A stretch of DNA of 58,169 bases, from NCBI GenBank assembly GCA_039000165.1, contig JAWBTW010000003.1, forward strand, positions 21,187 to 79,355. Direction: 5' to 3'. Below, one piece after another: positions 10,301 through 48,325 of the stretch. The first letter of the stretch is position 1; the number at the start of each line of letters is the position of its first letter. The notes beneath the pieces were generated by a model, which saw only the letters and a list, made by a program, of their open reading frames with translations, had not been told where the DNA came from and made no database searches. A program made the position numbers and the translations under genes. This DNA is from Candidatus Aenigmatarchaeota archaeon. Its GTDB lineage: Archaea; Aenigmatarchaeota; Aenigmatarchaeia; CG10238-14; SCSR01.

Positions 10301-10394
10301 GGGCCTATAGCTCAGCCTGGTTAGAGCAATCGCCTTATATGGCTCGCTTTCGTGAGAAAGCGATAGGTCGAGGGTTCAAATCCCTCTAGGCCCA
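10301..10394 (+). tRNA. tRNA-Ile(UAU) with 19-nt intron at 37/38 (10340..10358)
   Basis: Acceptor GGGCCTA/TAGGCCC, D-stem GCTC/GAGC, anticodon stem ATCGC/GCGAT, loop CT-TAT-A|A, T-arm GAGGG-TTCAAAT-CCCTC. BHB central helix CUUA/UGAG. Spliced length 75 nt; CCA not encoded. Confidence 0.92.
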
Positions 10395-10451
10395 TAAATT
10401 AACCTAATAAATCTCTTTTCCTTAGTAATTTAATTATGGGTAAAAATAAAA

Positions 10452-10684
10452 ATGAATTGGTCTGGAGTTTTATATGGTGGTTTCGGATGTGAACTTGCTT
10501 TGTGCGGTGCGATTGCTGCTTCTTGTCAAATCAATTATGCAAAATAGCTGGCATTACTCTTGTTGCCTCAGGTTCCATGATTGCGTATGCTGGTTTTGTC
10601 GAAGACACTATGTATGAAAAGTATAAACTACATGAAACACTTTATAAAGGCTTAAAAAATTTATATAAAAAGTTGATAAGATAA
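10452..10684 (+). pseudogene. Small two-TM membrane protein gene apparently split by a 1-nt frameshift
   Basis: ATG 10452 frame (MNWSGVLYGGFGCELALCGAIAASCQINYAK*) and the -1 frame (KIAGITLVASGSMIAYAGFVED...) join at the AAAA run 10541-10544 into ~77 aa. Confidence 0.45.
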
Positions 10685-10719
10685 CAGTGTAACTATTTTT
10701 ACTTCTCTTCTATTTTCTT

Positions 10720-11709
10720 TTAAACTACAATGCTCATAAATGCTTCTGCTATTAGAAAGTAAATTGCTAAAGTTAATATATCGCTTAGCAAGGTTGCTAA
10801 AGGCCCAGTTGCTATTGCCGGATCTTTCCCAATTTTTTTGAAGAAAAGGGGTAAAAGACTTGAAACCAAAACTCCAGCAAACATCCCAACAAATAATGCT
10901 ACTCCAACTATACAACTTAATAAAAAATTTTTCCATCCTATTAAAGCGATTAAAGCAAGAGTTAGAGAACAAACAGAAGAAAGAGCAAGAGTAACTTTAA
11001 GCTCTCTTATCATGTAAGACTTAACAGAAAACTTTGGGTCTAAAGCTATACTCCTTACTATCAAAGTTTCTGATTGAGTTCCTATGGAATCTGTTATGTA
11101 AACCATAACTGGAATGAAAGAAGCCAAAGCGAGGAAAACGCTTAAAACACTTTCAAAAAAAGTTACTATTGAAGCTGCTATAATTCCGCCAAAAATTCCT
11201 ACTAAAAGCCATGGTAACCTTGATTTAATCATGTGCTTAGCAGGAGATTTTATTGTTGTATATTCCTTTCCTACTTTGTGAAACAAACCGCCAAACTTAA
11301 AAATATCTTCTCTTACTTCCTGATTAAAAATTGTTAGAATTGTGTCATAAGGAACTACTCCAAGCAAATGATTTTTCTCGTCTACTACAGGAACTGCTTT
11401 TATTCCCTTTGAAAGAGCAAGATAAACTATCCTTTCCTGATGAGTTCTTGGATGAGCAAAAACCAAATCTTTTTTCATGATATCTTTAGCTTTCAAGTTT
11501 TTATCTTTAGCTTTCATAAGTTCTTTAATGGAAAAAACTCCGCAGAGGACTTTTTCTTTATCCACAACGTATATATAATCCAAAACCTCAAATTTCTCTG
11601 CTTCTCTAGTTAAAATTTTCTTAACCTCTTCCAAAGAAGAATCAACGCTAACTACAGGAACTTCTTTTATCATTAAAGATTCTGCAGTTTTTAAACTTTT
11701 TTGTTCCAT
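10720..11709 (-). CDS. mgtE: MgtE-family Mg2+ transporter (CBS pair + TM domain)
   Basis: Two CBS domains, SRLPWLL, FIPVMVYITDSIGTQ, DPAIATGPLATLLSD. ATG 11709 preferred over TTG 11736. Confidence 0.93.
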   Translation of the reverse strand: MEQKSLKTAESLMIKEVPVVSVDSSLEEVKKILTREAEKFEVLDYIYVVDKEKVLCGVFSIKELMKAKDKNLKAKDIMKKDLVFAHPRTHQERIVYLALSKGIKAVPVVDEKNHLLGVVPYDTILTIFNQEVREDIFKFGGLFHKVGKEYTTIKSPAKHMIKSRLPWLLVGIFGGIIAASIVTFFESVLSVFLALASFIPVMVYITDSIGTQSETLIVRSIALDPKFSVKSYMIRELKVTLALSSVCSLTLALIALIGWKNFLLSCIVGVALFVGMFAGVLVSSLLPLFFKKIGKDPAIATGPLATLLSDILTLAIYFLIAEAFMSIVV

Positions 11710-11789
11710 TAAACTCTTCAAAAATAATTTCTTCAATCTTACTTAAAAACTTGCTTAAATTAATAAAAGCAAAAGAATAAAAAGAAAAT

Positions 11790-12164
11790 ATGGAAATACA
11801 AGAAGCTTTTGGAAAAGTTGTTAACCTTTCTCACAAGAGTTTAGAAAAAGCGCTTGAGGTTTTAGAGTTAAGCAAAGATAAACTTGAGAAGAACATAAAA
11901 AATAAGAAATTCTTGATTTCTCATAAAAATTTTGACTTAATAATCGATTACAAACCAAACTCAAAACAAATTGTTCTTTATTTAACTGCAAAAAAATGGA
12001 GTAAAAAGTTGTTAAAAAGCTTAAAAGAAGGGGACGAATTTAAGTCTATGGTTGTTCTTTTAGGAAATACAAAAATTCTTAAAAGTGACTTTGACATAAG
12101 AATAGGTGCTTTTGGTATTCCTAGCTCTGAACTTGTAAGAGCAGTAATCCAGCATAAATCATAA
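11790..12164 (+). CDS. Hypothetical protein
   Basis: 124-aa ORF filling the gap, host-like codon usage; no motif recognised. Confidence 0.7.
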   Translation: MEIQEAFGKVVNLSHKSLEKALEVLELSKDKLEKNIKNKKFLISHKNFDLIIDYKPNSKQIVLYLTAKKWSKKLLKSLKEGDEFKSMVVLLGNTKILKSDFDIRIGAFGIPSSELVRAVIQHKS

Positions 12165-12671: not shown

Positions 12672-12723
12672 AATTTTCTGTTTGGTTGGTTATTTTAAAT
12701 ATTTCATGATGCAACAATAGATT

Positions 12724-13308: not shown

Positions 13309-13347
13309 TCACACTTAATAAATATTTTGAAAGCGTAAGATTAAATT

Positions 13348-13971: not shown

Positions 13972-13976
13972 TTAAA

Positions 13977-14101
13977 TAGCGGGGAGTGGATTTGAACCAC
14001 TGACCTTTCCCCCAGACTTAGTCTGTCCGGGTGTCGCATGAGCAGCCATTATGAGCCATTCGCAAAGCTTCGGCGAGCACTCCAGGCTGCTCTACCCCGC
14101 T
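13977..14101 (-). tRNA. Initiator tRNA-Met(CAU) with three introns (29/30, 37/38, 43/44)
   Basis: A1:U72 acceptor AGCGGGG/CCCCGCT. Removing 14058..14070, 14033..14049 and 14007..14026 yields a 75-nt tRNA with CCGGG-CT-CAT-AA-CCCGG (three G:C pairs, the initiator signature). Each junction has a BHB-like motif. Confidence 0.9.
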
Positions 14102-14548: not shown

Positions 14549-14552
14549 AACT

Positions 14553-15362
14553 ATGTTATTTACTAGCGAAGAAGAAACGATAAAGAAAGATGAAATTCTT
14601 AACACTTTCAAAGAACTTGGTTTGAGTGAGTACGAGACAAAAGTCTATTCTGCGTTGTTGTTTCTTGGTCCCTCAAAGGTTGGAAAAATAAGCAAAGTAT
14701 CAAAAGTTCCGCAATCAAAAATTTATGGCGTGCTAGAAGAACTTACGCAAAAGGAGCTAGTTGAGGTTTTTGATGGAAGACCTAAAGAATTCAAGGCAAT
14801 TCCAATAAAAATAGCTTTTAAAAACCTTCTGCACAAAAAAGAAGAAAACCTTAGAATTTTAAAAAGCAGAATAAATTTCTTGACAAAATTATTTAGACCT
14901 TTGAAAAATGATGAAGAATTTTGTGAAGGAATTTGGGTGCAAAAAAATGAAAAAAGTTGGGAAGCTCTAAACAGGTTTTCAACCATGCTAGAAAACTGTA
15001 AAGAATATGTTTTCGATATAACAAAAGATTTTTCCTTAACCCCTTCTTTGAGAGACTCTTTAAGAAGATGTGTGAAAAAAGGTGTAGAACTTAGGGTAAT
15101 AAGTACAACAAAAATTACAAAAGAAAATTTTTGTAGAGCAAAATGGTTTTATGATAACGGTTTCAAAATAAAAGTTTTTGAAGCAGGAAATCATCCAAGA
15201 GTTTTGATAGTAGATGGAAAGGAAGTTGGAATAAAGCTCGAAAGCAACTCGAATAAGTTTTATTTCCAATTCCTTTGGTCTAAAAACAACTCTTTAGTTA
15301 GAATTTTTGATAATTACGCAAAAGCATTATGGAAGATTGCTAAACCGCTAAGAATTAGCTAA
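14553..15362 (+). CDS. TrmB-family transcriptional regulator
   Basis: LGLSEYETKVYSALL...SKVPQSKIYGVLEEL..K.LV N-terminal wHTH, then a PLD-like effector domain (HPRVLIVDGKE). Confidence 0.92.
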   Translation: MLFTSEEETIKKDEILNTFKELGLSEYETKVYSALLFLGPSKVGKISKVSKVPQSKIYGVLEELTQKELVEVFDGRPKEFKAIPIKIAFKNLLHKKEENLRILKSRINFLTKLFRPLKNDEEFCEGIWVQKNEKSWEALNRFSTMLENCKEYVFDITKDFSLTPSLRDSLRRCVKKGVELRVISTTKITKENFCRAKWFYDNGFKIKVFEAGNHPRVLIVDGKEVGIKLESNSNKFYFQFLWSKNNSLVRIFDNYAKALWKIAKPLRIS

Positions 15363-16437
15363 GTGCTTTAGATATAGAGATTATTCTTGTCTTCCCTTTC
15401 ATACCTTTCTTCACTTCTTTTATTTTTATTAGTCCGATTTGATTGAGATGATTGATTAAATCTCTAAAAGCTCTGTCGCTAAGAGGATTTTCCGTTTTTT
15501 TACAATATTCTCTATACAACTCTCCTGAAGTTAAACTTTTTTTCTCTTTCAAGATTTCCAAGATAATTTTTTCATTCTCGCTTATATTTTCTTCCAAAAT
15601 TTTTGGCTTAGCTGGTTTAATTTGTGGCAAAACTTTTTTCACATGAAGAACTTTAAGCTTATCTGAATTTTCACTTTCTGCCAATCTACCAGCCCTAAGT
15701 AAGCATTCCAAACCAACTCTCACGTCACTTCCCTTTTGAACAGCAAAGTTTGCTACTAGAATAGCTACTCCTTCTTCTACAGAGTGGAAAGCATTTTTTA
15801 TTCTTTCCTCAATGATATCTTTCATCTCTTGTACATTATAAGGCTTAAATTCTATTTCCTCTACTCTTAAACTGCTTTTTATTCTTGGATCAAGATTAAC
15901 AAAAACATCTTTGAAATTAGAAATAAAAACAAGACATACTGGGTTTTTTAAGTATTGGTTAATTCTCAACAAATCATAAAGGATTTCCGGACTTTTGAAT
16001 ATTAGTTGATCTACCTCATCCAAACAAACAACCAAACCCCTTTTTGTTTTACCTAAAAATTCTATCATTTTTTCCAGAACTTCATCCTTGCTTATCCCTC
16101 TTCTTGGAGCAAATACGCCTAACTCGTTTGCAATTTTTGTAAGGATAGAAAGAGGAGTATTATAATCCCAACAATTTATGTAAATTGTCTTTATATTTTC
16201 ACTAAAATCTTCAAACTCGCGGAAGACAAATTTAATAACATGCGTCTTTCCTATTCCTGGTGGACCAAAAATAAAAGTGTTTTGTCCTGCTGAACCTCTA
16301 GCTACTGGCATTAAATTCCTTGCTATTTGTTTTATTTTATCTTCTCTGTGTGGTAAAAACTCGGGCAAATAATCAGGAGATAAAACTTCCTCGTTTTTAA
16401 AAATTCTTGATTCGTAAATTTCTGAAAAAGTTTTCAT
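15355..16437 (-). CDS. cdc6: Orc1/Cdc6 replication initiator
   Basis: LSPDYLPEFLPHRE, Walker A GPPGIGKT, Walker B LDEVDQL, C-terminal wHTH. Confidence 0.95.
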   Translation of the reverse strand: MKTFSEIYESRIFKNEEVLSPDYLPEFLPHREDKIKQIARNLMPVARGSAGQNTFIFGPPGIGKTHVIKFVFREFEDFSENIKTIYINCWDYNTPLSILTKIANELGVFAPRRGISKDEVLEKMIEFLGKTKRGLVVCLDEVDQLIFKSPEILYDLLRINQYLKNPVCLVFISNFKDVFVNLDPRIKSSLRVEEIEFKPYNVQEMKDIIEERIKNAFHSVEEGVAILVANFAVQKGSDVRVGLECLLRAGRLAESENSDKLKVLHVKKVLPQIKPAKPKILEENISENEKIILEILKEKKSLTSGELYREYCKKTENPLSDRAFRDLINHLNQIGLIKIKEVKKGMKGKTRIISISKALS

Positions 16438-18035: not shown

Positions 18036-18059
18036 TTTTCTTCACTTTTAAAAAATCTG

Positions 18060-18130
18060 TGGGCCTGCCAGGAATTGAACCTGGTTCTTGGCGTTGTAAG
18101 CGCCACGTCCTACCGTTAGACTACAGGCCC
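18060..18130 (-). tRNA. tRNA-Val(UAC), intronless
   Basis: GGGCCTG/CAGGCCC acceptor, TGGCG-CT-TAC-AA-CGCCA anticodon arm, CCAGG-TTCAATT-CCTGG T-arm; 71 nt; no CCA. Confidence 0.95.
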
Positions 18131-32443: not shown

Positions 32444-32528
32444 GCCCCTGTAGTCTAGCCTGGACAGGATAGAAGCTTGCGGTAAGAGTGAAAAGCTTCT
32501 GGCCCGGGTTCGAATCCCGGCAGGGGCA
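32444..32528 (+). tRNA. tRNA-Arg(GCG) with 11-nt intron at 37/38 (32483..32493)
   Basis: GCCCCTG/CAGGGGC acceptor, GAAGC/GCTTC anticodon stem, TT-GCG-G|A loop; central helix UUGC/GUGA; spliced length 74 nt. Confidence 0.92.
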
Positions 32529-32570: not shown

Positions 32571-32753
32571 ATGCCAAATTTAATTCTTATAATCATCTTA
32601 CTAATCCTAATTTTTCTTCTCTTCCTAAACTTAGACTGTATAATGGAAGGAATAAACAGAGAAAACAAAGCTTTTTGCTTTTACCAAGATTTTGGGTTGA
32701 ACAAAATAGGCGCAAAAACTATTCCTTTAAGCAAATGTGTTTGTTTCCCTTAA
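32571..32753 (+). CDS. Small membrane-anchored Cys-containing protein
   Basis: ATG 32571, strongly hydrophobic N-terminus, four Cys; downstream of tRNA-Arg. Confidence 0.5.
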   Translation: MPNLILIIILLILIFLLFLNLDCIMEGINRENKAFCFYQDFGLNKIGAKTIPLSKCVCFP

Positions 32754-33658
32754 TTTTTTAAAACAACCTTCATAAAATCATAAGCAACTTTCGTGTTTTC
32801 AAAAATCTTTTTTGCATTTTCTTCTAAATCTTTTACGTCAGTATACCTTCTACTTATGTGAGTTAAGATTAATTGTTTAACGTTTGCCTTTTTTGCTATT
32901 CTTGCTGCTTGTTTAACGTCAGCATGAGCTTTTCCACTTTCTTCCTCAAGAAAAGTTCCGTCATGAATTAGCAAATCAGCGTTTTCAGAAATTTTTACAA
33001 TATTATCGCAAGGTTTTGTATCACCTGTATAAACAACCTTTAAACCTTTCTTTAAATTTGCTACTTCTTCGATTCTAATCTCTTTTCCCTTATATTCTGC
33101 TTTCCCATATTTTTTAAGTTTCTTGAGCCAATAACCTCTTTTTAAACCAAGCTTTTTCATTTTTTCCAAATCAATACTCCATCTATCCTTTTCCTTAAAA
33201 GCATAAGCTACAGAAGGAATAGAATGAAAAGCTGGAATTGAAAAAATTTGATAATCTTCTGTTTCATCTATAAGAGTAACTTTTTCACCATGAAAAGGAA
33301 CGTTTATAGCAACAACAGGAAACCTACAACCAAAATAGCCTAAGCTTAAAATGTTTGCCACAAACTTTTCAGCTTCTGGGGCAAAAATTTTCAATTCTTT
33401 TTTTCTTTTTTCCAAGCTCATAGTTTGGAGCAAAGGAATTAAACCAGCAAAATGATCAGCATGCCAATGAGTTATGAAAATCTTATCTATTTTCATAAAG
33501 CTAATTCCAGCAAGCATTAATTGCTTTTGGGTTCCTTCACCGCAATCAAAAAGTAAAGTTTCTTTTTTCTTGCTATAGTACTCTAAAGCTATTGCTGGGT
33601 GGTTTCTTTCTTTGCTCGGTATACCAGAAACCGTGCCCAAAAAAGTTATTTCTATCAC
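32750..33658 (-). CDS. rnz: Ribonuclease Z
   Basis: FLGTVSGIPS..R, LFDCGEGTQ, THWHADH, YTGDT, LIHDGT, LTHISRRY. Confidence 0.97.
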   Translation of the reverse strand: MIEITFLGTVSGIPSKERNHPAIALEYYSKKKETLLFDCGEGTQKQLMLAGISFMKIDKIFITHWHADHFAGLIPLLQTMSLEKRKKELKIFAPEAEKFVANILSLGYFGCRFPVVAINVPFHGEKVTLIDETEDYQIFSIPAFHSIPSVAYAFKEKDRWSIDLEKMKKLGLKRGYWLKKLKKYGKAEYKGKEIRIEEVANLKKGLKVVYTGDTKPCDNIVKISENADLLIHDGTFLEEESGKAHADVKQAARIAKKANVKQLILTHISRRYTDVKDLEENAKKIFENTKVAYDFMKVVLKN

Positions 33659-33680
33659 AATCCTAATTATAGGAAAATCT

Positions 33681-35111
33681 TTATATTAGGCTTTCCTTTT
33701 CAAAGTATTTTCTCAAGAATATGCCAAAATTTTCATCTTTTTTAACAAGCTCCATTATCTTTTCATTCTCGTAAATTAGCTCAAAACCTTTTACTATTTG
33801 TTCAGCTATGTGATTTGGTATTCCTTTTGCTTTAAGCACTTCCAGATTCTTGCTTAGACTGTCAAAAATTTTCTCTCTTGCGGTGATGAATTTTCTTTTA
33901 ACTTCAACACACCAGAAATTGTCTTCTATAAAAGGTCCAGTAATTGCTTGAGTTTTATACTTTTCTAAAAACCTTTCAGAATCGTCCAAATCAAAAATTT
34001 TCGGTCCAATTCTTTTTTGAATTAAAGGCAGCTTGGAAACTTCCATCTCAAGTAGAACTACAGCCAAATCTTTTTCATTTGTATAAACATCCTTCCTTAA
34101 AACTTTAAACTCATACTTAACTTCTTCCAAGATACTTTGAATCCTTTCAGCAAATTTTCTTAGCTGAGGCCAAAGAATGTCAGGGACAACTTTTGGCGGT
34201 GAAAATTTAATAAGTATTATTTCCGTTCTTCTTTTCATTTGATAAACTATTAGTTCATTTTCAGTTATTGGCTCGATTTTTCTCTTAAAGAAAAGCTCTT
34301 CTCTCGGGTTTTCCAAGAATTCTTTAGCCAGTTTTTTAAACTTGAAGAAATTAGTAGAAGAGAGGGCAGCACAGGTATTTCTGTTTTTGTCTGTCGGGTC
34401 TATAAGAATTAAAGCTTGGTTTTTAAACATCCTTATAAGCTTAGGATAATCACTTTTCGAATAATAATTTTTTATTTGAATTATTTCACCTGGTTTCCAG
34501 TTTGCAGCCTTTTTCATGAGTTTAAGGAAACTCTTGTACTTTATTATAAGCAACTCACAAACATAACCAGAAAAACCTTCAGTTTTTGCATCAGCTCCAT
34601 ATATTTCGTTAGCCTCACAAAACTTCTTCAAAAGTCTTACTTCCTCTGCCATTTTTTTAGTTAAATTCTTTTCTATGAACCTAACATGGAAAGGAGTTCT
34701 GTCTACTGCGGACTTTATTTTTTCTGGACTTTCTACTTCATAACAAGGCACTATATCAACGCTTATTTCTTTAATTTTCCCTGAAACATAAGGATGTTGC
34801 GCATACTCTATTGTGTATTCTCCCTTCATCCTTTCTATAACTTTTTTTCCTATTTCTAGACCAAGCTTTTCGAGCTCTTTTTCTTTCAGTTCAGGAGGGA
34901 AAAGAATGAAAACGTCAAACTCTCTTTTTTCTGGAAGCCAAGTATCTCTTGTTATACTTCCTACAAGCATAGCTTTTGCCTTGTATTTTTTTGCTTCCTC
35001 GTTAGCAATTTTTAGAACACGCTGAGCTAAAGATTTCAGTCTTCTCTCTTCCTCTTTCTTTGGCTTTATTTTTTCAAGTACTTCTTTCAATACTTTTGCG
35101 TGCTTATCCAT
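33681..35111 (-). CDS. cca: CCA-adding enzyme, archaeal class I
   Basis: GSITRDTWL...EFD, YAQHPYV, VDIVPC, SAVDRTPFH, GFSGYVCELL, IDPTD..RN. Confidence 0.96.
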   Translation of the reverse strand: MDKHAKVLKEVLEKIKPKKEEERRLKSLAQRVLKIANEEAKKYKAKAMLVGSITRDTWLPEKREFDVFILFPPELKEKELEKLGLEIGKKVIERMKGEYTIEYAQHPYVSGKIKEISVDIVPCYEVESPEKIKSAVDRTPFHVRFIEKNLTKKMAEEVRLLKKFCEANEIYGADAKTEGFSGYVCELLIIKYKSFLKLMKKAANWKPGEIIQIKNYYSKSDYPKLIRMFKNQALILIDPTDKNRNTCAALSSTNFFKFKKLAKEFLENPREELFFKRKIEPITENELIVYQMKRRTEIILIKFSPPKVVPDILWPQLRKFAERIQSILEEVKYEFKVLRKDVYTNEKDLAVVLLEMEVSKLPLIQKRIGPKIFDLDDSERFLEKYKTQAITGPFIEDNFWCVEVKRKFITAREKIFDSLSKNLEVLKAKGIPNHIAEQIVKGFELIYENEKIMELVKKDENFGIFLRKYFEKESLI

Positions 35112-35115
35112 TCTT

Positions 35116-36087
35116 TCACTTTATTTCAAACTCTCTTTCGATGCATCTTACCTTTCCTGTTACTTCACATCCTCCGTACTGAAGGCCTCCTTTGTAAGAA
35201 GTATAATAACAAAACATTGCTTTGTACTTTCCTGGTTCTGCCATTTTTTCCTCGTTGCAATTCTTTGGGAATGTCCTATTTCCAGAAGTACAGTTTATTG
35301 TTTTTGGTTCATAAACTTTTTGGTTCCATACATAACTAAATACTCCAAGAGGTTTAATTTCTGAGCAAAGTTTAGCCTTTGCAGGGCATAATGGACAAGC
35401 TAAACAATCACAGGGGCATGGACAGTAAACTTTTATTTCTTGTTCTACCCATTCACCGTTTTTATACAAGTATAGAAACTTCTCGTCCCAGTCGTAAAAA
35501 TCTACGTAAATCGAAGAATTAAGGTTGTTTATTATCTTAAACTCAATATCTTCTCCCTGTTTATAAGATTCTTTAAGAAGGAAGTTCACCCCTGGCTCAA
35601 GCCCACAAACCTCTTCTATTTCTATTTCTTTGTCTCCAACTCGAACGTATGCGCATGAAAATTCACCTTTCTCTCCAACTAAACCAATTAAGTAATAAAC
35701 CTTGCAATGTGGTAAGTAAGCTTCACAACCTTCAGGCTCTTTTTTCCAAAGTTTTGAAGCTCTAAAAACTTCTACACTAGTGTTTGGCTTAATGTAATCC
35801 TCTATGCCGTCGCAACTTTTTTTAAGAGTATTGAACAAATTTTCATCTACAAAAAGAGATACTTTACTTATTTCTTCAAAGCTAGTTCCGCATTTTGCTA
35901 TTTTTTGATTTATAAGGTTGAGTGCTTCTTCATTTGTTATTTCAACAGGAAAAGGTTTTGGTGAATAGTACAAATAGTATAAAACTATTATTACTACAGT
36001 TAAAACCATTACTGGTATGACTAGGCTCTTCCAGCTTATTTCTTTCTTAACTCTTTTAGCTTCCTTTTCTCTTGCTTTTTTCGCCAT
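35116..36087 (-). CDS. Membrane-anchored extracellular protein with Cys cluster and Ig-like C-terminal domain
   Basis: Basic N-terminus + TM helix; CPCPCDCLACPLCP; YKQGEDIEFKIINN...SYVWNQ...PGKYKA Ig-like pattern. Confidence 0.78.
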   Translation of the reverse strand: MAKKAREKEAKRVKKEISWKSLVIPVMVLTVVIIVLYYLYYSPKPFPVEITNEEALNLINQKIAKCGTSFEEISKVSLFVDENLFNTLKKSCDGIEDYIKPNTSVEVFRASKLWKKEPEGCEAYLPHCKVYYLIGLVGEKGEFSCAYVRVGDKEIEIEEVCGLEPGVNFLLKESYKQGEDIEFKIINNLNSSIYVDFYDWDEKFLYLYKNGEWVEQEIKVYCPCPCDCLACPLCPAKAKLCSEIKPLGVFSYVWNQKVYEPKTINCTSGNRTFPKNCNEEKMAEPGKYKAMFCYYTSYKGGLQYGGCEVTGKVRCIEREFEIK

Positions 36088-36120
36088 AATTATTTTTTTC
36101 TTTTTTATAACTTAAATTTG

Positions 36121-36741
36121 CTAGTAAAAGAAAAGAAAGAAAATCAGAAAGATTAGTAAGGAAACCAAAAGGATTAAAGGAGAGGTTTGAGGATAAGGCA
36201 AAGAGAAAAAACCAGTAGTTGTACTCGAAACAAAGAAAGCCAAAAATCCTAGGAAAAATAAAGGAATAAGTTTTATAAACTCTTTAAAGCCAAACTTTTT
36301 CTCAATTTTAATTTCTTTTTTAGTAAGTAAAGATTCTAAGCAGCTCTGAAGCATTTTATAAACTTCTCTTCCATAGCCCACTTTTAACAACAAATCCTCC
36401 GCTGGGATTAAGCCTTTTTCAATATAAACCTTGAACCTGGAGTAAATTCCGTTTTTGTAAAGATTATACAAGAGTTTTCTTGCTTCTTCACTTAAGCTTA
36501 TTTCTATTTTTCTCCTGTAAGAATAATCCTTTTTTCCATAGCCCATAAGTTCAAAAGAAGTTTGGGGTAAGTATTCAAGAGTTAAATTGTTTGTCTCTTG
36601 TTTTAAAACAACTCTTTTTCTTTTTTCTAAAGGTAACTTTTCCCAATAAATTTCAAAAATCCTTCCTAAGCTCTTAGCAATTTCAGAAGTAAGGCTATTA
36701 TTTTGATACAAACTCTTGCTCAGATTTGAAAAAAAGCTCAT
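36121..36741 (-). CDS. Hypothetical protein with two C-terminal TM helices
   Basis: 206 aa; C-terminal helix-TTGFFS-helix hairpin. Confidence 0.72.
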   Translation of the reverse strand: MSFFSNLSKSLYQNNSLTSEIAKSLGRIFEIYWEKLPLEKRKRVVLKQETNNLTLEYLPQTSFELMGYGKKDYSYRRKIEISLSEEARKLLYNLYKNGIYSRFKVYIEKGLIPAEDLLLKVGYGREVYKMLQSCLESLLTKKEIKIEKKFGFKEFIKLIPLFFLGFLAFFVSSTTTGFFSLPYPQTSPLILLVSLLIFLIFFLFFY

Positions 36742-36773
36742 TATTTAATTTTTGTTTTTCCCTTACCTTAACT

Positions 36774-37010
36774 CTAACTCCTAGCTAAACATTTTTCCAT
36801 TTCTGCTATAACTTCAGAGTAAGGTTCCTTATCGTAACTTGTATAATTTTTCTTTAAGTAATTGTACACAACCAAAGCCTCCCATTTTGGAAGAGCTCGA
36901 AACTCTTTCAAAGCTTCTTCTATGCTAATCCCTCGGAAAATGCTGTAAGGACAAGGAAAATTACAACTCTTAAGCAATAATTCAAAAGTTTCGATTAAAA
37001 GTTGGTTCAT
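36774..37010 (-). CDS. Small hypothetical protein
   Basis: 78-aa ORF just downstream of elp3 on the same strand. Confidence 0.6.
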   Translation of the reverse strand: MNQLLIETFELLLKSCNFPCPYSIFRGISIEEALKEFRALPKWEALVVYNYLKKNYTSYDKEPYSEVIAEMEKCLARS

Positions 37011-37031
37011 ACTCTATTAATAGCAAAAAAA

Positions 37032-38591
37032 CTATAAAAGTTTTGAAACATAAGCTCCATCTTGTTTATAACCAAGTCTGTAGTAGTATTTTTTGACGCC
37101 TGCTCCACTAATAACAACAATTTTATTTTTATCAAACTCTTCCTTTGCAATTCTTTCTGCCTCTTCTAAAAGTCTTCTTCCAAAACCTTTGTGCTGAAAA
37201 GCTTCTTCTTTAAACTCTCCTACAGGAACCAAAGGCCCATAAACATGAAGCTCCCTTACTAGAGCAGTTTTTTCTGTTATTTCCTTTCTAAAAGGTTTGA
37301 ACGGAATCCTTAATCTAAGGAAAGCGATTAAAATATCATTTTTTATATCTTCAAAACTTAAGAAAACTTCTTCTCCCTGTGAAGCCTCATAATCAAGCCT
37401 ACAAAGCTTTATTTTATCAAAATCAATGCTCACACCTTTTTCAAGCTTATGACCAACTTCTCTGTATCTTATCTCTTTTATCTTTATTCCCAGTTCTTCT
37501 GCTCTTTTCTCGACAAATTCTCTTAGATTGCTTTTCTTAACTCCCGCAACTATATGAGTTGCAGGTATATCTCTTTGAACCCTTATTATTCTGCAATACT
37601 TTGGAATGTACTTCAAAGCTCTTGCTATTAGTTCTATTGCTTCCTTTTCTTCCAAAGGTTTATACTCACCTTTTTTCCACATTTCATAAAGTTTTGTTCC
37701 CTTAATCACAAGAGTAGGGTAAATTTTAAGTGAGTCTGGTCTAAAGTCAGGGTTTTCAAAAATTTCTTTAAATTGATTTAAATCTTCTTCAAAACTTGTA
37801 AACAGGCCTGGCATAACATGCCAAGTAATTTTTAAGCAAGAGTCTTTTGCTAGTTGCGTTGCTTTAATAACATCTTCTAAAGAATGAATTCTTTGCGCTT
37901 TCCTCAAAATTTCCGGATAAATAGACTGAACTCCAATTTCGACTCTTGTCGTAGCTAGTTTAAGCATTTGATTTATATGCTTCTCAAAACAAAAATCAGG
38001 TCTTGTTTCTATGGTTAAACCAGAACACCTTATTCTTCCTTCCTCGTTTAGTCTTATAGCTTCTTCTAAGCTTTTTGCCTCACTTCCGTTCAAAGCATCA
38101 AAAAGTCTTTTAACAAACCATTCTTGATATTCTTTTTCTAAAGCAAGAAAAGTTCCACCTATTATTATAAGCTCAACCTTATCGATGCTGTGACCCATTA
38201 AACGATACTGATTTATTCTACAATTCACCTGAAGAAAAGGATCATAATTATTCTGTATAGCCCTTTGAATCGCAGGTTCTAAACCAACGTAGCTTTGTGG
38301 TGCATTCTCACCTTTTGGGCAATAAATACATATACCAGGACATTTTGCAGGTTTAGGTACAACAGTGATAACTGAAACTCCAGAAATTGTTCTTCCTGGT
38401 TTCATAACTAAAAAATCCTTAAGCTTTTCCCTTTCTTCTTTTGTGCAAGCTTGAAGAATTTGAATGCTTGTTGGAATTTTCTTTGCATTATATTTTTTAC
38501 AAACTCTTTTAACTATTGACCAAGCTTTTTCTCTTGTAAGCTTTTCTTTTTTTAGTTCCTCGATTATCTCTCTTAGCAGTTTTTCTTCCAT
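37032..38591 (-). CDS. elp3: tRNA uridine(34) acetyltransferase Elp3 (radical SAM + KAT)
   Basis: RTISGVSVI, CPGICIYC (CxxxCxxC), IETRPD, LRLR, RELHVYG, QHKGFG. Confidence 0.97.
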   Translation of the reverse strand: MEEKLLREIIEELKKEKLTREKAWSIVKRVCKKYNAKKIPTSIQILQACTKEEREKLKDFLVMKPGRTISGVSVITVVPKPAKCPGICIYCPKGENAPQSYVGLEPAIQRAIQNNYDPFLQVNCRINQYRLMGHSIDKVELIIIGGTFLALEKEYQEWFVKRLFDALNGSEAKSLEEAIRLNEEGRIRCSGLTIETRPDFCFEKHINQMLKLATTRVEIGVQSIYPEILRKAQRIHSLEDVIKATQLAKDSCLKITWHVMPGLFTSFEEDLNQFKEIFENPDFRPDSLKIYPTLVIKGTKLYEMWKKGEYKPLEEKEAIELIARALKYIPKYCRIIRVQRDIPATHIVAGVKKSNLREFVEKRAEELGIKIKEIRYREVGHKLEKGVSIDFDKIKLCRLDYEASQGEEVFLSFEDIKNDILIAFLRLRIPFKPFRKEITEKTALVRELHVYGPLVPVGEFKEEAFQHKGFGRRLLEEAERIAKEEFDKNKIVVISGAGVKKYYYRLGYKQDGAYVSKLL

Positions 38592-38907: not shown

Positions 38908-40356
38908 TTAACTTTTTTCTGCTGTAACTTTTATTATACTTGGTGTCTCATACAGCATATCGCCAAACGCAATTTCAAACGGCTTGTAAAGCAACCAATC
39001 CCCTGTATGCCAATAAAAGTCCTCAATATAATAATGTGAAAACCTTCTTGCCAACTTACTAAGATATTTTTTATTTTCACCTAGCTTTTCTTCTAATTTT
39101 TCTAATACCTCATTTGCCCAGATAATATCATTTGGACTAACTTTTGTCATAAAATAGATTTTAATTACTTCGTTAACAACCCCTATTTTTTCTTCTGGAA
39201 CTATTGTTTGAATAGCTTTTTGTAAAATTGTTTGAGTATGTACAGGGTTGTCTTTGTAATTCTTTTTTATTATGTACTTAACACCATATTTGTCTACTTT
39301 CTTTTTATCTACTTTCTTTAAAGGCAAATTGTTTGCTGCACTTTTACAAACCTCTTCAACATAATCTATAACACTTCCTAATTTCCTGAGATTTTCTACA
39401 CTTTTAAGGTTTCTTAAAATTTGAAGGAAATCCGTATCAGCCTTACGAAACCCGACAACAGGCAAATAATTAATCAAAAACTCATAAAATTGGTATGTCT
39501 GTCTTTCCACTTTTTCTCTTAATAATTCCAAAGCTTTTATTTTAATTTCATCTAGATTTATACAAGTTTTAGGTTGAAAGAGTTTTACAAATCTAACGAA
39601 ACTTCTTGGTTTAGGACTGATTCTGTACAACACTTGTTGGAAAGATTCTTCTAAGAAAATTCCATAATCTTCGATAAGACTGCACCATTCCAAATAGGTA
39701 TATGTAGGAATTTCCCTAAAAGCTAGATAATCAATCTTTTCTGAAAAACTTTCCCATTCTTCTTTAGTTTTGTAAAAACTCCGAGGATGAATACCAAACT
39801 TAGGCCAAACATCATCAAACTCTTTCATTTTTAAATTTTCCGTATAAAAGGATGGTATATCCTCAGAAATTAGAACTACTTTTTTTCCTGAATCAACGAA
39901 GTTGAGTATTTCTTTTAAAAATTTCAAAAAATCCTCTGGGGTATACTCTCCTTTCGCTATTGCTTCACAAACGTAATGAATATCATCAACCACTATAACA
40001 TTTGACAAATCTAACAAATCCTTTGTATCACTTGAATATACCTTAAGCCTATCTTTCCATATTTCTGGTGCTGCTAGTTTTAATGGATTAAGAATCTGTC
40101 TTCCTAAACCTTCCTTAAATATGAACATAGTTGGTATTAGTTTTTCATTTTCTCTTACCACCTCACTTAAGCTTTTCATTACCTGAAATGTTTTACCGGA
40201 ACCCTTAGGTCCTAGCACAAACAAAGGTCTTTTTTCTTCTGAAAGAAAGTATTCTTTTAATCTTTCCTTGAAATGAAAGAGTGCTGATTCTAACTCATTA
40301 AGAGTCGCAAAATCTAAGTTTTCTGCTCTTTCCTCTATTAAAACCATAGACTTCAC
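38908..40356 (-). CDS. P-loop ATPase (AAA+/archaeal ATPase-like) with unknown C-terminal region
   Basis: LFVLGPKGSGKT Walker A; VIVVDDIH Walker B. Confidence 0.8.
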   Translation of the reverse strand: MKSMVLIEERAENLDFATLNELESALFHFKERLKEYFLSEEKRPLFVLGPKGSGKTFQVMKSLSEVVRENEKLIPTMFIFKEGLGRQILNPLKLAAPEIWKDRLKVYSSDTKDLLDLSNVIVVDDIHYVCEAIAKGEYTPEDFLKFLKEILNFVDSGKKVVLISEDIPSFYTENLKMKEFDDVWPKFGIHPRSFYKTKEEWESFSEKIDYLAFREIPTYTYLEWCSLIEDYGIFLEESFQQVLYRISPKPRSFVRFVKLFQPKTCINLDEIKIKALELLREKVERQTYQFYEFLINYLPVVGFRKADTDFLQILRNLKSVENLRKLGSVIDYVEEVCKSAANNLPLKKVDKKKVDKYGVKYIIKKNYKDNPVHTQTILQKAIQTIVPEEKIGVVNEVIKIYFMTKVSPNDIIWANEVLEKLEEKLGENKKYLSKLARRFSHYYIEDFYWHTGDWLLYKPFEIAFGDMLYETPSIIKVTAEKS

Positions 40357-40427: not shown

Positions 40428-40523
40428 TAGCCCCGAGCGGATTCGAACCGCTGTCACGAGGTTTCTCCCAGCGACCAGAGCCTTCTACCCTTTTCGTATG
40501 CTTGGCCGCTGCACCACGGGGCT
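40428..40523 (-). tRNA. tRNA-Gln(CUG) with two introns (29/30 and 37/38)
   Basis: AGCCCCG/CGGGGCT acceptor. Removing 40483..40493 (11 nt) and 40463..40474 (12 nt) gives CGAGG-CT-CTG-GA-CCTCG and a 73-nt tRNA. Central helices AUAC/GUAG (3 of 4 pairs) and CUCU/GGAG. Confidence 0.9.
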
Positions 40524-40614: not shown

Positions 40615-40894
40615 ATGAAAGGTGAATTAGAAACAAATCGTAATTTCTTCTTATTCTGACTTGTTTAAATCTTCTTCTCTAGTTAGCTACTTACACTTTA
40701 GAAAATTCTTGAGCAAGAGAATGTTAGAATTTATCCTTAAAAACTGTAAAAACATAAAAATTATTTCAATGTCAAAGTATGCTTATAAGAGATGCGACAA
40801 AAAAATTATAGAATTAATAGAAAAGCGAGGTATAAAATTAATTGTTAGACAAAACTTAGGAAGACCAAGCATAATAGAGAGGCGAATGAAATGA
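40615..40894 (+). CDS. DUF1699-like small protein with interrupted 5' end (frameshift or in-frame TAG)
   Basis: KQIVISS...YLHFRKF...FILKNCKNIKII.MSKYAY...GIKL resembles DUF1699 as I recall it. The frame is open from 40631 with no ATG before the conserved first strand. Confidence 0.5.
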
Positions 40895-42747
40895 GAATCT
40901 TACAATTGCATGCAGATTTCATAGAATATGAACCGATAAAAAAAGAAATTGCCCAAGCAGAAGATGCCGAAAAGAAAAAATACAAGTTTGAAGAAATTCT
41001 AGTCTTATTAACTTGTGTAGAAGAAGGAGATAACCAGGAAGTTGCAAGAGAAGCTATAGAAGAAACAAAAGAATTTCTCCAAAAATTAAAGTTAAACAGG
41101 ATTTTGATCTATCCTTTTGCTCATTTAAGCTCAGACATCGCAAAACCTACCGAAGCCCTAAAGATAATAAAGGAAATGGAAAGTTATGCAAAAAAAATTG
41201 GAATAGAAACTTTCAGGGCCCCTTTTGGTTGGAACAAAGCTTTGCAAATAAAAGTTAAAGGCCATCCGTTAGCTGAGCAGTCAAGGCACATAACAGCAAA
41301 GAAAAAAGAGGAAAAAGTTTCCGAAGCAGTAAAAGCAGAAGAAAAAATTAAATCTTTTTGGTTCATCCTTTTGCCTGACGGAAAACTAGTAGAAGTGGAA
41401 AAGTTTGATTTTTCGAAACATCCTAACCTTAAAAAATTTGCAGATTATGAGATAAGCAAAGTTAGAGCAGTTCAACAAGTTCCTCCTCATGTTACCTTAA
41501 TGAAAAAACTAGAAATAGCAGATTATGAAGAAGGTTCAGACCCAGGAAACCTAAGATGGTATCCGAAGGGAAGATTAATTAAATCTTTACTTGAAAATTT
41601 TGTTACTCAAAAAGTCTTAGAGTATGGAGGAATGGAAGTCGAAACTCCAATAATGTATGACTTTAACCATCCTGCTCTAGCAAATTATTTAAACAGATTT
41701 CCTGCAAGGCAGTATGTGGTTAAATCTGAAGATAAAGAGCTTTTCCTTAGGTTTTCAGCATGCTTTGGCCAGTTTTTAATGAGTAAGGACGCTCAAATTT
41801 CTTACAAAAACTTGCCTTTTAGGATATACGAGCTTACAAGATACAGCTTCAGAAGAGAAAAAAGTGGGGAAGTTGTTGGGCTTAAAAGATTAAGAGCGTT
41901 TACTATGCCAGACGTCCATGCATTTTGTGAAGACATAGAACAAGCTAAGGAAGAATTTATAACCAGGTTTAAACTTTGTATGGAAGTTCTGAGGGAGATA
42001 GGCTTAGAAAAGGAAGATTATGAGCTTGCTATAAGGTTTACCAAGGATTTTTATGAGAAAAATAAGAATTTTATAGTTTCCTTAGTCAAGCAGTTTGGTA
42101 AGCCTGCGTTGGTTGAGATGTGGAACGAAAGGTTTTTCTACTTTGTTTTGAAATGGGAATTCAACTTTGTCGATAACTTGAACAAAGCTGCAGCTCTCTC
42201 TACGGATCAAATTGATGTTGAAAACGCTGAAAGATATGGAATAACTTATATTGACAAAAAAGGCAAGAAAAGGTATCCAATAATACTTCATTGCTCGCCT
42301 AGTGGAGCGATAGAAAGATGTATTTATGCTCTTTTAGAAAAAGCTTATTCAGACCAACAGAAAGGAAAGGTCCCAAAAATTCCATTATGGCTCTCTCCCA
42401 CACAAGTAAGGCTTGTTCCTGTTTCGAACAAATTCTTAAGTTTTGCGGAAAAAGTAGCTGAAAGTTTAGAAAAAAATTGCATAAGGGTTGATATAGATGA
42501 TAGAGAAGAAACTGTAAATAAAAAAATAAGAGAAGCTGAGATTGAATGGGTTCCCTTTATCTGCGTTTTAGGTGAAAAAGAAGTCAAGAATAATATTTTG
42601 GCAGTTAGAATAAGGGAGAAAAAAGAAGTTAAAGAAATGAAAATAGAAGAATTGATAGAAATGATTAAAGAAGAAGTGAAAGGGAAGCCTTTCAAGACTC
42701 TTTCTTTACCAAAGTATTTGTCGAGGCGTGCTATTTTTGTTAGCTAA
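40891..42747 (+). CDS. thrS: Threonyl-tRNA synthetase (archaeal type with N-terminal editing domain)
   Basis: MRILQLHADFIEY, YPFAHLSS, LRFSACFG, RLRAFTMPDVH, ILHCSPSGAIER. Confidence 0.97.
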   Translation: MRILQLHADFIEYEPIKKEIAQAEDAEKKKYKFEEILVLLTCVEEGDNQEVAREAIEETKEFLQKLKLNRILIYPFAHLSSDIAKPTEALKIIKEMESYAKKIGIETFRAPFGWNKALQIKVKGHPLAEQSRHITAKKKEEKVSEAVKAEEKIKSFWFILLPDGKLVEVEKFDFSKHPNLKKFADYEISKVRAVQQVPPHVTLMKKLEIADYEEGSDPGNLRWYPKGRLIKSLLENFVTQKVLEYGGMEVETPIMYDFNHPALANYLNRFPARQYVVKSEDKELFLRFSACFGQFLMSKDAQISYKNLPFRIYELTRYSFRREKSGEVVGLKRLRAFTMPDVHAFCEDIEQAKEEFITRFKLCMEVLREIGLEKEDYELAIRFTKDFYEKNKNFIVSLVKQFGKPALVEMWNERFFYFVLKWEFNFVDNLNKAAALSTDQIDVENAERYGITYIDKKGKKRYPIILHCSPSGAIERCIYALLEKAYSDQQKGKVPKIPLWLSPTQVRLVPVSNKFLSFAEKVAESLEKNCIRVDIDDREETVNKKIREAEIEWVPFICVLGEKEVKNNILAVRIREKKEVKEMKIEELIEMIKEEVKGKPFKTLSLPKYLSRRAIFVS

Positions 42748-45346: not shown

Positions 45347-45385
45347 AACATTAAATTATTGTAAGTTTAAATATTTTATGGAAAA

Positions 45386-45550: not shown

Positions 45551-45717
45551 TTAAGAATTATCCCTAATAAACTCTATGCCTTTTGAAAGGTAAGGATTCC
45601 TTCTTTTGGATGAAAACTGTATAAAATCTTATAAACCTTAGTTCCAAAAATTTGAAACTTACAAAATTCTTTAACCTAAAAGCTTTAATGGTTAAAATAA
45701 AAATTTAATTAGAGAAA

Positions 45718-46371: not shown

Positions 46372-46405
46372 ATATTAAATTCAAAAATATATTAAGGTTG
46401 AGTAG

Positions 46406-47830
46406 ATGAAAAAGTTAATTTTCTTTTTCATTCTTGGAATAGTTTTGTTAGCTGAACCGGTTTTTGCCCAAGATGTAGAACTTTATCTTGAAACTTCCCA
46501 ACTAAAAATATACGCAGGAAAATCTGGCTCCGTAGAAGTGAATGTTTTTAACAACCAAAATTTTACTGATACTTTTTCCATAACAATATGGCCTACTCAG
46601 TTTGCCGATGTTATAACAACTGTAGAAAACCCAAACTTAAGAATAAACGCAAAAAGCAATGCTAGCACAAAAATTTATTTTTTTGCTTCTGAATGCGCAG
46701 ACGAATCCACGATTCAATTTGAAATTACAGCAAGTTCTACGACAAGCAATGCATCGAAATCAAAAAACCTCTTGCTTAGTGTTTTAAGAACTTTCATAGT
46801 TTGTATTTCAGATTTTAAACTTGACAAGTATGGTGAAATTGAACCCAACGAATCTCTTAAAATAACAACATACCTTACAAACCCTACTTATAAGATTTCA
46901 CCTCAATTTTTTGTTCAGACTAACATCAAACTTGAAAACAAAACTATAGAAAGTTTTGACGAGACTGTTCAACCCATGTCACAAAAGTCGACGAAAATTT
47001 TAAGTTTAACCTATAATTTTAGCGAATACGCAAGCCCAGGAATCTACAGGATAGAAGTTTTACTTAAGGATGAACTTAACAACCTAGTAACAAAGAAAGA
47101 AGAAACAATTAGAATGAAAATAGTGAACAAAACTTCTACCCAAAGCTGGACTGACATAGGAATTCTTTCTGCAGTAACAACAGTAAAAATAAAGAATGAA
47201 GGAAATGTAGTAGTTCCTATAAAAATAACAACCTCTATTCCAAGTTTTGTTAAAAACCTTTTCTTCCCAGAAATTCAACCTACCCGTGAAAAAACACAAG
47301 ATGGTTGGATAGAATACGTGTGGGAATTTGAGAACGTTAAGCCAGGAGAAGAAGTTATAGTAAGGTATGAAATAAAGCTTCTTTATGTTTGGCTTTTCTC
47401 CTTGGGTATAGTAATTGTAGTAATTCTTGCTTTTAAGTTTGTTTATGGCCCTACTGTTGTCAAAAAATATAAGCCAATAGTTCCAACTTTGGGAAAGGAA
47501 ATTACTATCGCTCTAGAAATTAAAAATAAAAGCAAGCATGAAATAGAAGATGTTGAAGTTAGGGATTTTGTTCCTACATTGTTCGAGGTTAGTGAAAAGT
47601 TCGATACTGTTAGACCAGACTCAGTCAAAAAAGTTAAAGGTGGGACCATAATAACCTGGAAGTTTAACTCGCTTAAACCCCTAGAAGAAAGAGTTTTAAC
47701 TTATAAGATTAAACCAAAAATGGAAATAAGTGGAACTTTCAAGCTACCAAACGCTTATATGAAGTACTTGGACAAGAAAAAAGAAGTTAAAAGTATAGTT
47801 TCCAAATCTATTTTACTTAAAGCAGAATAA
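46406..47830 (+). CDS. Single-pass membrane protein with Ig-like domains on both sides of the membrane
   Basis: Signal peptide, several Ig-like segments, TM (LYVWLFSLGIVIVVILAF), then a DUF11-like domain (ITIALEIKN...VEVRDFVP...WKF..L). Confidence 0.8.
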   Translation: MKKLIFFFILGIVLLAEPVFAQDVELYLETSQLKIYAGKSGSVEVNVFNNQNFTDTFSITIWPTQFADVITTVENPNLRINAKSNASTKIYFFASECADESTIQFEITASSTTSNASKSKNLLLSVLRTFIVCISDFKLDKYGEIEPNESLKITTYLTNPTYKISPQFFVQTNIKLENKTIESFDETVQPMSQKSTKILSLTYNFSEYASPGIYRIEVLLKDELNNLVTKKEETIRMKIVNKTSTQSWTDIGILSAVTTVKIKNEGNVVVPIKITTSIPSFVKNLFFPEIQPTREKTQDGWIEYVWEFENVKPGEEVIVRYEIKLLYVWLFSLGIVIVVILAFKFVYGPTVVKKYKPIVPTLGKEITIALEIKNKSKHEIEDVEVRDFVPTLFEVSEKFDTVRPDSVKKVKGGTIITWKFNSLKPLEERVLTYKIKPKMEISGTFKLPNAYMKYLDKKKEVKSIVSKSILLKAE

Positions 47831-47864
47831 AATTTAAAAAACCTTGCTACAATTTTTATTATAG

Positions 47865-47978
47865 CCCCGCTTAGCTCAATGGTAGAGCGACCGGCTGTAG
47901 GCGAGCGCTTTGGCGCTTGCTAGTAGCTATCGCTCGGTCAATACCGGTAGGTTGGGAGTTCAAGTCTCCCAGCGGGGA
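47865..47978 (+). tRNA. tRNA-Tyr(GUA) with 42-nt intron at 37/38 (47901..47942)
   Basis: C1:G72 acceptor CCCCGCT/AGCGGGG, ACCGG/CCGGT stem, CT-GTA-G|A loop; spliced length 72 nt. The junction motif is non-canonical. Confidence 0.88.
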
Positions 47979-48048
47979 CTATTATTTTTAGGCTATAAAA
48001 ACCAAAAACTTTAAAAGTTTTTAAATTCCAAATATCATAAATATATTC

Positions 48049-48164
48049 GTTGGCGGCCAAAGCGGGGAGGAAACATCTGTTCCCGTTCCGAACACAGTAA
48101 TTAAGCTCCCCAGCGATCTGGGTTGTACTTTCCGAAAGGAAGGGAACTCCAGGACGCCGCCAAC
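48049..48164 (+). rRNA. rrf: 5S rRNA (stand-alone, not with 16S/23S)
   Basis: Terminal helix GTTGGCGGC/GCCGCCAAC, CCCGTTCCGAACACAG..TTAAGC core, TTCC-GAAA-GGAA loop; 116 nt. Confidence 0.95.
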
Positions 48165-48239
48165 AATTTAAATTGGTGTCTGTATTAAAGAAAAAACAGA
48201 GAATGATGACTTTTCCTTAGAATTCCATGAAATAAGGAT

Positions 48240-48325
48240 GCCTCGGTGGTGTAGGGGCCTAATGGATAGGCTAAGCATACGAGCCTGTCACGCTCGTGAC
48301 ACGGGTTCAAATCCCGTCCGAGGCG
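48240..48325 (+). tRNA. tRNA-Asp(GUC) with 13-nt D-arm intron at 21/22 (48262..48274)
   Basis: GCCTCGG/CCGAGGC acceptor, G73, CGAGC-CT-GTC-AC-GCTCG arm. The 22-nt D-loop resolves via BHB (GGCC/GGCU helix, UA|A and AA|G bulges). Spliced length 73 nt. Confidence 0.9.

Follow-up and report, generated by a model that had tools for sequence, protein, structure and literature searches.

What are the short insertions that interrupt six of the seven tRNA genes in a 58,169-nucleotide stretch of an Aenigmatarchaeota genome, and how would tRNAs be made from genes of this kind? The stretch, called the window here, comprises positions 21,187 to 79,355 of contig JAWBTW010000003.1 (assembly GCA_039000165.1) and has a G+C content of about 33%. 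It belongs to a hot-spring metagenome-assembled genome (MAG) of the Aenigmatarchaeota, a phylum within DPANN. The seven genes carry nine insertions, about 1.3 per gene. We are highly confident that these are genuine archaeal tRNA introns of the bulge-helix-bulge (BHB) class; in motif geometry, all nine fall into the relaxed subclass of such introns and not into the strict one.

The genes and their introns are listed below in window coordinates. The outer and inner helices flank the four-pair central helix on the exon and the intron side, respectively; BHL stands for bulge-helix-loop, and HBh' for a central helix, one bulge and an inner helix. The blind solver is described further on.

10301..10394, plus strand: tRNA-Ile(UAU), 94 nt, one intron; Rfam 65 bits, spliced form called Ile(tat) by ARAGORN, found by the blind solver
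10340..10358, plus strand: Ile intron, 19 nt, at 37/38; outer helix 5 bp, central helix 4/4, no inner helix, BHL type
13977..14101, minus strand: initiator tRNA-Met(CAU), 125 nt, three introns; recognized by a GC island and a T-arm motif, spliced form called Met(cat), found by the solver
14058..14070, minus strand: initiator intron 1, 13 nt, at 29/30; central helix 4/4, outer helix 2 bp, inner helix 1 bp
14033..14049, minus strand: initiator intron 2, 17 nt, at 37/38; central helix 3/4 (U·C mismatch), inner helix 3 bp
14007..14026, minus strand: initiator intron 3, 20 nt, at 43/44; central helix 3/4 using C39–C41, inner helix 5 bp, HBh' type
18060..18130, minus strand: tRNA-Val(UAC), 71 nt, the sole gene without an intron; ARAGORN, Rfam and solver
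32444..32528, plus strand: tRNA-Arg(GCG), 85 nt, one intron; Rfam 51.7 bits, spliced form called Arg(gcg)
32483..32493, plus strand: Arg intron, 11 nt, at 37/38; central helix 4/4 (two G·U pairs), no room for an inner helix, BHL type
40428..40523, minus strand: tRNA-Gln(CUG), 96 nt, two introns; spliced form called Gln(ctg), found by the solver
40483..40493, minus strand: Gln intron 1, 11 nt, at 29/30; central helix 3/4, outer helix 3 bp, BHL type
40463..40474, minus strand: Gln intron 2, 12 nt, at 37/38; central helix 4/4, BHL type
47865..47978, plus strand: tRNA-Tyr(GUA), 114 nt, one intron; Rfam 58.7 bits, spliced form called Tyr(gta)
47901..47942, plus strand: Tyr intron, 42 nt, at 37/38; inner helix 6 bp, clean 5' bulge, central helix 2/4 (both G·U), HBh' type
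48240..48325, plus strand: tRNA-Asp(GUC), 86 nt, one intron in the D-loop; Rfam 35.8 bits with a broken acceptor, spliced form called Asp(gtc)
48262..48274, plus strand: Asp intron, 13 nt, at 21/22; central helix 4/4 (GGCC with GGCU), inner helix 1 bp plus a 4-nt loop

Eight of the nine introns are 11–20 nt long, and the ninth, in tRNA-Tyr, measures 42 nt. Five occupy the canonical site 37/38 and four lie at non-canonical sites, namely 21/22, 29/30 (twice) and 43/44. The number of introns and of interrupted genes, the site of each intron, the length range of eight of them and the count of four at non-canonical sites had all been proposed in an initial annotation made from the letters of the sequence, and every one of these statements proved correct. 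All seven genes are colinear, their 5' and 3' halves lying within 71–125 nt, and none of the seven is split or permuted. As read from the sequence, the gene for tRNA-Met has two features typical of archaeal initiators, the pair A1:U72 and an anticodon stem with three G-C pairs.

The introns were located by direct reading followed by scripted scoring of every possible splice-site pair, after which the coordinates were re-checked. Standard tools applied to the raw window give a rather different picture. ARAGORN made five calls and missed two genes; four of the calls were misnamed, as Stop(tta), Pro(cgg), Ser(aga) and Ala(ggc), the last three being the genes for tRNA-Arg, tRNA-Gln and tRNA-Asp, respectively. 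Rfam returned five tRNAs and the 5S rRNA, and the genes for the initiator and for tRNA-Gln were missed even at E ≤ 1, so that the initiator escaped both programs. When the introns were removed in silico, ARAGORN called all seven sequences as normal tRNAs of the claimed identities, with canonical cloverleaves. We also used a blind solver, which looks for a T-arm together with an acceptor stem, takes out as many as three inserts that fit a BHB motif and checks whether the remainder forms a cloverleaf. In the window, it recovered exactly the seven genes and the nine introns. As a control, it found 165 genes in 80 related loci (1.4 Mb; see below), versus 1 on the reversed sequence.

Because the source is a metagenome-assembled genome, errors of assembly or binning might be suspected, although nothing specific points to them. 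The interrupted genes recur in assemblies made independently: besides the NCBI MAG, a Logan assembly of run SRR21619498 contains them. A 598-residue fragment of an RNA polymerase B subunit from the window has an exact match on JAWCDU010000001.1 (142 kb, GCA_044343425.1) and occurs in the Logan assemblies of the same run as well. Identical structures are seen in NCBI MAGs, in Logan single-run assemblies and in four sister species, which argues against an artefact. The insertions could also be real and be retained in the mature RNA as expanded loops, but those at 29/30 and 43/44 split the anticodon stem and would destroy the tRNA fold. Together, artefact and retention appear to us scarcely credible.

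The junctions themselves carry a strong signal. Over the nine introns, 31 of the 36 possible pairs of the 4-bp central helix are formed, whereas shuffling of the intron sequences yields 14.2 on average, and in 200,000 such shuffles 31 was never reached. The helix is complete in five introns, has three of its four pairs in three introns and two in one (Tyr). The 3' bulges are rich in adenine, two A residues directly preceding the splice site (AA followed by N) in six of the nine introns. The initial annotation had described many of the motifs as relaxed, BHL-like or mismatched; in fact, this holds for all nine, each being relaxed, BHL-like, HBh'-like or mismatched. A strict hBHBh' motif, which requires two or more base pairs in the outer as well as in the inner helix, is found in none of the nine in the unspliced precursors. 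Both flanking helices reach 2 bp in initiator intron 2 alone, which is nearly canonical apart from its one U·C mismatch in the central helix. The introns of Ile and Arg and both introns of Gln (11–19 nt) are of the BHL type, with a good outer helix, 3' bulge and central helix. Initiator intron 1 and the Asp intron combine perfect central helices with 1-bp inner and short outer helices, and in initiator intron 3 (5 bp) as well as in the Tyr intron (6 bp) the inner helix is strong and the outer half weak. The 3' site of the Tyr intron sits in an internal loop, as just two of the four central pairs form.

In two introns of the initiator, the splicing motif draws on nucleotides that the mature tRNA uses otherwise. 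The central helices of introns 1 and 3 recruit nucleotides of the D-stem (24–27) and of the anticodon stem (39–41), respectively, and thus the splicing-competent fold and the cloverleaf would be mutually exclusive there. For intron 1, whose partner is the 3' strand of the D-stem, unconstrained folding yields pairing probabilities of 0.81–0.97 for the central helix; the corresponding values for the Asp intron are 0.91–0.96. A different dependence exists between neighboring introns. Once the intron at 29/30 is removed, the outer helix of the intron at 37/38 grows from 2 to 5 bp in the initiator and from 3 to 7 bp in tRNA-Gln. In both genes, this outer helix is the anticodon stem, which is broken by the 29/30 intron, and a preferred order of splicing is therefore likely, in which the 29/30 intron would be removed before the one at 37/38.

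The 80 related loci (L005–L084) were obtained by scanning one genome per GTDB species with the neighboring RpoB fragment. They span the syntenic region of tRNA-Tyr, 5S rRNA, tRNA-Asp and rpoH, plus the tRNA-Gln gene about 8 kb upstream; with respect to the rpoB match, tRNA-Asp lies about 0.3–1.5 kb and tRNA-Gln about 8–9 kb upstream. Almost all carry the title “Candidatus Aenigmatarchaeota archaeon”; the nearest come from hot-spring MAGs that are 91–95% identical (isolates DRTY-6 and JZ-1), names consistent with a study of MAGs from Tengchong hot springs (PMC11094006).

The four closest species share with the window the introns at 21/22 in tRNA-Asp, at 29/30 and 37/38 in tRNA-Gln and at 37/38 in tRNA-Tyr. 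Their exons are almost identical, while the intron loops differ and the intron nucleotides that pair with the exons are kept. In the Asp intron, for instance, the 3' end aggctaa is preserved in L005–L008 while the loop varies. Gln intron 1 is common to L005, L007, L008, L030 and L032, and in one case a compensatory change is seen: U25-A of the window is replaced by C25-G in L032, and the central helix is kept. The Tyr intron is 39–45 nt long in most species, and over 45 species its central helix is 86% paired; the small clade to which the window belongs deviates, having lost two of the four pairs. The inner helix adjacent to the bulge is 64% paired, compared with at most 43% in slid registers, and two-sided changes occur at four of its five pairs. 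The drift of intron sequence around a maintained BHB motif points to selection on structure. We also observed an interior hairpin of the Tyr intron (47901–47942 in the window), GAGYGC...GCRCTT, that is conserved across the phylum (L005–L083); no C/D-box motifs were found in the Tyr intron.

Farther from the window, the same genes differ widely in their introns. By approximate counts, the solver survey of the 80 species found introns in 130 of 165 tRNA genes, 160 introns in all, with 75 of them outside 37/38. In 18 of 62 species, the tRNA-Asp gene has no intron; elsewhere in the phylum, it carries introns at 15/16, 21/22, 24/25, 27/28, 29/30, 37/38, 38/39, 43/44 and 45/46, most of them with a complete central helix. 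The intron-free tRNA-Asp of L058, at the same syntenic site, aligns to the spliced product of the window with a score of 134 out of a maximum of 146. Similarly, 14 of 31 tRNA-Gln(CUG) genes lack introns and the others have them at at least eight positions. Judging from these comparisons, introns have been gained, lost and re-positioned between species of Aenigmatarchaeota, and a high load of introns with relaxed motifs is a property of the phylum with rapid turnover, not an oddity of the window.

The same data bear on a further reading, in which the interrupted genes would be decaying pseudogenes and intact, functional copies would reside elsewhere in the genome. Our view is limited to 58 kb of that genome, and further copies of these tRNA genes may exist. 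However, the exons are fully compatible with a cloverleaf and conserved across species while the introns diverge, the insertions are complementary to the neighboring exon over 4 bp much more often than chance would give, and the interrupted state persists at the same syntenic sites in related species. Moreover, the initiator is among the interrupted genes. We therefore regard decay as highly improbable.

If the insertions are BHB introns, maturation would proceed along a known route. Each gene would be transcribed as a colinear precursor, and the RNA at each exon–intron junction would form a helix of 4 bp with a 3-nt bulge on either side, a terminal loop taking the place of one bulge in introns too short for an inner helix. 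The endonuclease EndA, encoded elsewhere in the genome, would cut in both bulges, and an RtcB-type ligase would join the exons. Since none of the seven genes encodes CCA, a CCA-adding enzyme is needed for the 3' ends, which would be completed by the one encoded in the window.

Which type of EndA would cut such motifs? The nine relaxed motifs call for a broad-specificity endonuclease whose gene lies beyond the window, and this part of what the initial annotation had deduced agrees with our data. Its further premise, that relaxed motifs need an enzyme of the (αβ)2 or ε2 type, is outdated. In its favor, classical biochemistry (PMC4033280; PMC5829648) attributes the cutting of BHL, hBH and HBh' motifs to (αβ)2 and ε2 enzymes, and both types occur in DPANN, (αβ)2 in Nanoarchaeum equitans and ε2 in ARMAN-1/2. 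Yet Kaneta et al. (2018, PMC5829648) described α4 EndAs with an extra loop, L3, in several DPANN lineages that have many, markedly disrupted tRNA genes, and they argued that inserted loops confer broad specificity, the subunit type contributing least to substrate recognition. Consequently, a genome encoding a homomeric EndA alone would not refute splicing, contrary to what had been proposed at the outset. We consider it less likely than not that the enzyme is specifically of the (αβ)2 or ε2 type; it could be a homomeric α4 enzyme with an added loop, or something more divergent.

Searches for the enzyme itself covered the window, its flanks and the relatives. Domains of EndA or RtcB turned up neither in the open reading frames (ORFs) of the window nor in about 10 kb of contig past its right end nor in the 80 related loci, the left flank being covered through contigs of near-identical relatives. 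Pfam scans of the window ORFs and the annotations of their neighbors yielded no EndA. A phmmer search with EndA of Methanocaldococcus jannaschii, a query validated against PDB entry 1a79 (E = 8e-111), gave no match in the window or the related loci searched. Alignment of 20 unannotated window ORFs to an EndA alignment with hhalign resulted in probabilities below 2%, and an EndA hidden Markov model had no match in the window plus 84 loci. Two candidates were discarded: a pair of unannotated ORFs at 35116-36087 and 36121-36741, which appear to be membrane-anchored and have neither a family nor a PDB match, and the gene occupying a syntenic EndA slot in the Aenigmatarchaeota locus L080, which turned out to be TrmY.

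In a large protein database, an EndA search returned 106 matches, mostly from Methanococcales and DPANN-like sources, none of them labelled Aenigmatarchaeota, and among the best 120 matches listed in two EndA profile searches, which are mainly two-domain α'2 proteins, none carried that label either. Five contigs with a DPANN-like EndA were obtained. All five enzymes are single-unit proteins of 168–190 residues with Tyr/His/Lys catalytic residues, which speaks against the (αβ)2 and ε2 types; they come from low-GC MAGs, none labelled Aenigmatarchaeota. One of the contigs, JAUWZX01, comes from a series of cold-seep MAGs that also includes two MAGs of Aenigmatarchaeota. In four of these EndA loci (L091, L092, L093 and L095), large Ig-like secreted proteins are encoded upstream and a convergent gene lies downstream, which has a weak metallo-β-lactamase match in L091 and is unannotated in the other three; it is followed by a Lon-type protease and then by aminoacyl-tRNA synthetases.

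Several observations weigh against the assignment of the insertions as BHB introns or limit its reach. When whole precursors are folded without constraints, the central helix is favored in three of nine cases (initiator intron 1, Asp and, partly, Gln intron 1); we treat this result as uninformative and not as deciding against BHB motifs. The central helix of the Tyr intron consists of two G·U pairs and nothing more. EndA and RtcB were found neither in the window nor in about 10 kb of its right flank nor in 85 related loci. The survey counts include some misparses (28-nt Tyr “introns”; L033, L038, L061 and L073), and the survey is dominated by three orthologous genes, those for Tyr, Asp and Gln, and is not a genome-wide sample. 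Finally, that the precursors are spliced at all we infer from DNA. The assignment of the insertions as BHB introns nevertheless remains, in our judgment, very probable.

The initial annotation had also suggested that BHB introns might hide in protein genes and be misread as frameshifts. For this, we find no support in the window: no split or frameshifted coding sequence is evident, the splits in rpoB and rpoA being the ordinary archaeal ones, and a generic scan for strict BHB motifs, with 180 matches versus 162–179 in shuffled sequences, has no discriminating power.

Other features of the window concern tRNAs as well. The isoleucine tRNA has the anticodon UAU. The usual archaeal anticodon of this tRNA is CAU, modified to agmatidine, and besides the present case, a UAU form has been reported from Nanoarchaeum equitans and Korarchaeum cryptofilum, both of which are without TiaS. 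No TiaS-like gene was seen within the window. Genes for tRNA maturation in the window are those for RNase Z, the CCA-adding enzyme, Elp3, Pus10 and TrmY, and the aminoacyl-tRNA synthetases encoded there are a class I LysRS and ThrRS. At 28672-30554, the gene for TrmY, the tRNA pseudouridine-54 N1-methyltransferase (245 bits to the NCBIfam equivalog), runs into the beginning of that for Pus10, and the two form a two-gene unit for m1-pseudouridine 54. A run of maturation genes occupies 32750-38591 on the minus strand and encloses the two ORFs discarded above as EndA:

37032-38591, minus strand: Elp3
36121-36741, minus strand: unannotated ORF, 206 residues, with a C-terminal hydrophobic tail; no family or PDB match
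35116-36087, minus strand: unannotated ORF, 323 residues, Cys-rich, with an N-terminal membrane anchor; no family or PDB match
33681-35111, minus strand: CCA-adding enzyme
32750-33658, minus strand: RNase Z

A lone 5S rRNA gene (48049-48165, Rfam) lies between the genes for tRNA-Tyr and tRNA-Asp, and no 16S or 23S rRNA gene was found near it. The region around it (47865-48568) lies immediately upstream of rpoH, split rpoB and split rpoA. The ThrRS of the window (40891-42747) has about 69–89% identity to that of some species among L005–L084 and 31–36% to that of others, which suggests that ThrRS has been replaced by a different type within the phylum. At 15355-16437 and 38908-40356, there are one clear Orc1/Cdc6 and one divergent AAA+ ORF with weak Orc/Cdc6-like matches; the latter adjoins the tRNA-Gln gene. 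A cluster on the minus strand at 2393-7565 resembles those for assembly of a type IV pilus or archaellum and encodes two T2SSF-family membrane proteins and a T2SSE ATPase; three small unannotated ORFs in it may be pilins.

The practical weight of these results lies in the tRNA annotation of DPANN MAGs. Standard tools misname or miss interrupted tRNA genes, including that of the initiator, and the tRNA counts that standard pipelines deliver for Aenigmatarchaeota MAGs will fall short or be wrong. Given the failures of ARAGORN and Rfam described above, this phylum needs intron-aware tools; otherwise, the tRNA counts used in MAG quality standards, as well as inferences on codon usage and decoding, will be wrong. 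Beyond annotation, the same syntenic gene occurring with no introns or with variously placed ones provides a dense comparative series for the gain, loss and sliding of BHB introns outside the Thermoproteales. The lineage must also possess an endonuclease that cuts BHL and HBh' motifs, which is relevant to the question of subunit architecture versus added loops as the determinant of specificity.

The literature that we searched contains no survey of tRNA introns or of EndA type in Aenigmatarchaeota. We tentatively propose, at somewhat less than even confidence, that the phylum has independently become a hotspot of non-canonical tRNA introns, one not described so far, with turnover at the level of species and an EndA outside the two classical types. 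If so, it would offer a natural series both for the gain and loss of BHB introns and for what sets the specificity of EndA.

The closest known parallel is found in the crenarchaeal Thermoproteales (for example Pyrobaculum, Thermofilum and Caldivirga), where a single gene can hold as many as three introns and many introns sit at non-canonical sites; the introns are short, their BHB motifs are relaxed, and intron content varies between related species (PMC4033280). The density in the window is at the level reported for that order, and the initiator, with three introns, and tRNA-Gln, with two, likewise combine several introns per gene at non-canonical sites. In contrast, the host here is a DPANN archaeon of about 33% G+C that is represented by a MAG, and the Thermoproteales enzyme is an (αβ)2 EndA with a crenarchaeal loop. 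Similar introns in different tRNAs, the sign of the intron transposition described for the Thermoproteales, were not seen in an all-against-all comparison of 169 introns, a small sample dominated by three tRNA families, in which the top matches and all matches across tRNA types came from mis-parsed Tyr genes.

Within DPANN, increased disruption of tRNA genes has been noted in several lineages (PMC5829648), with ε2 enzymes in ARMAN-1/2 and Mancarchaeum, (αβ)2 in N. equitans and α4 with L3 in Pace-, Woese- and Nanohaloarchaea. As in the window, these are small-genome lineages with non-canonical and multiple tRNA introns whose relaxed motifs imply an endonuclease of broad specificity (PMC5829648; PMC3239211); set beside them, the window is without split or permuted genes, its exons being all colinear. 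Compared with the canonical introns at 37/38 of euryarchaeal tRNA-Trp, tRNA-Tyr and tRNA-Met, which have strict hBHBh' motifs, five of the nine window introns share the site, and the Tyr intron, of about 40–45 nt, occurs phylum-wide and has a canonical central helix in most species. The 37/38 introns of the window differ in being relaxed: three of them are 11–19 nt long and lack an inner helix, that of the initiator has a central mismatch, and that of tRNA-Tyr has lost two of its four central pairs. The mechanism and the motif classes are already known; what is new is the lineage, a density of nine introns over seven genes and the way in which introns turn over from one species to another.

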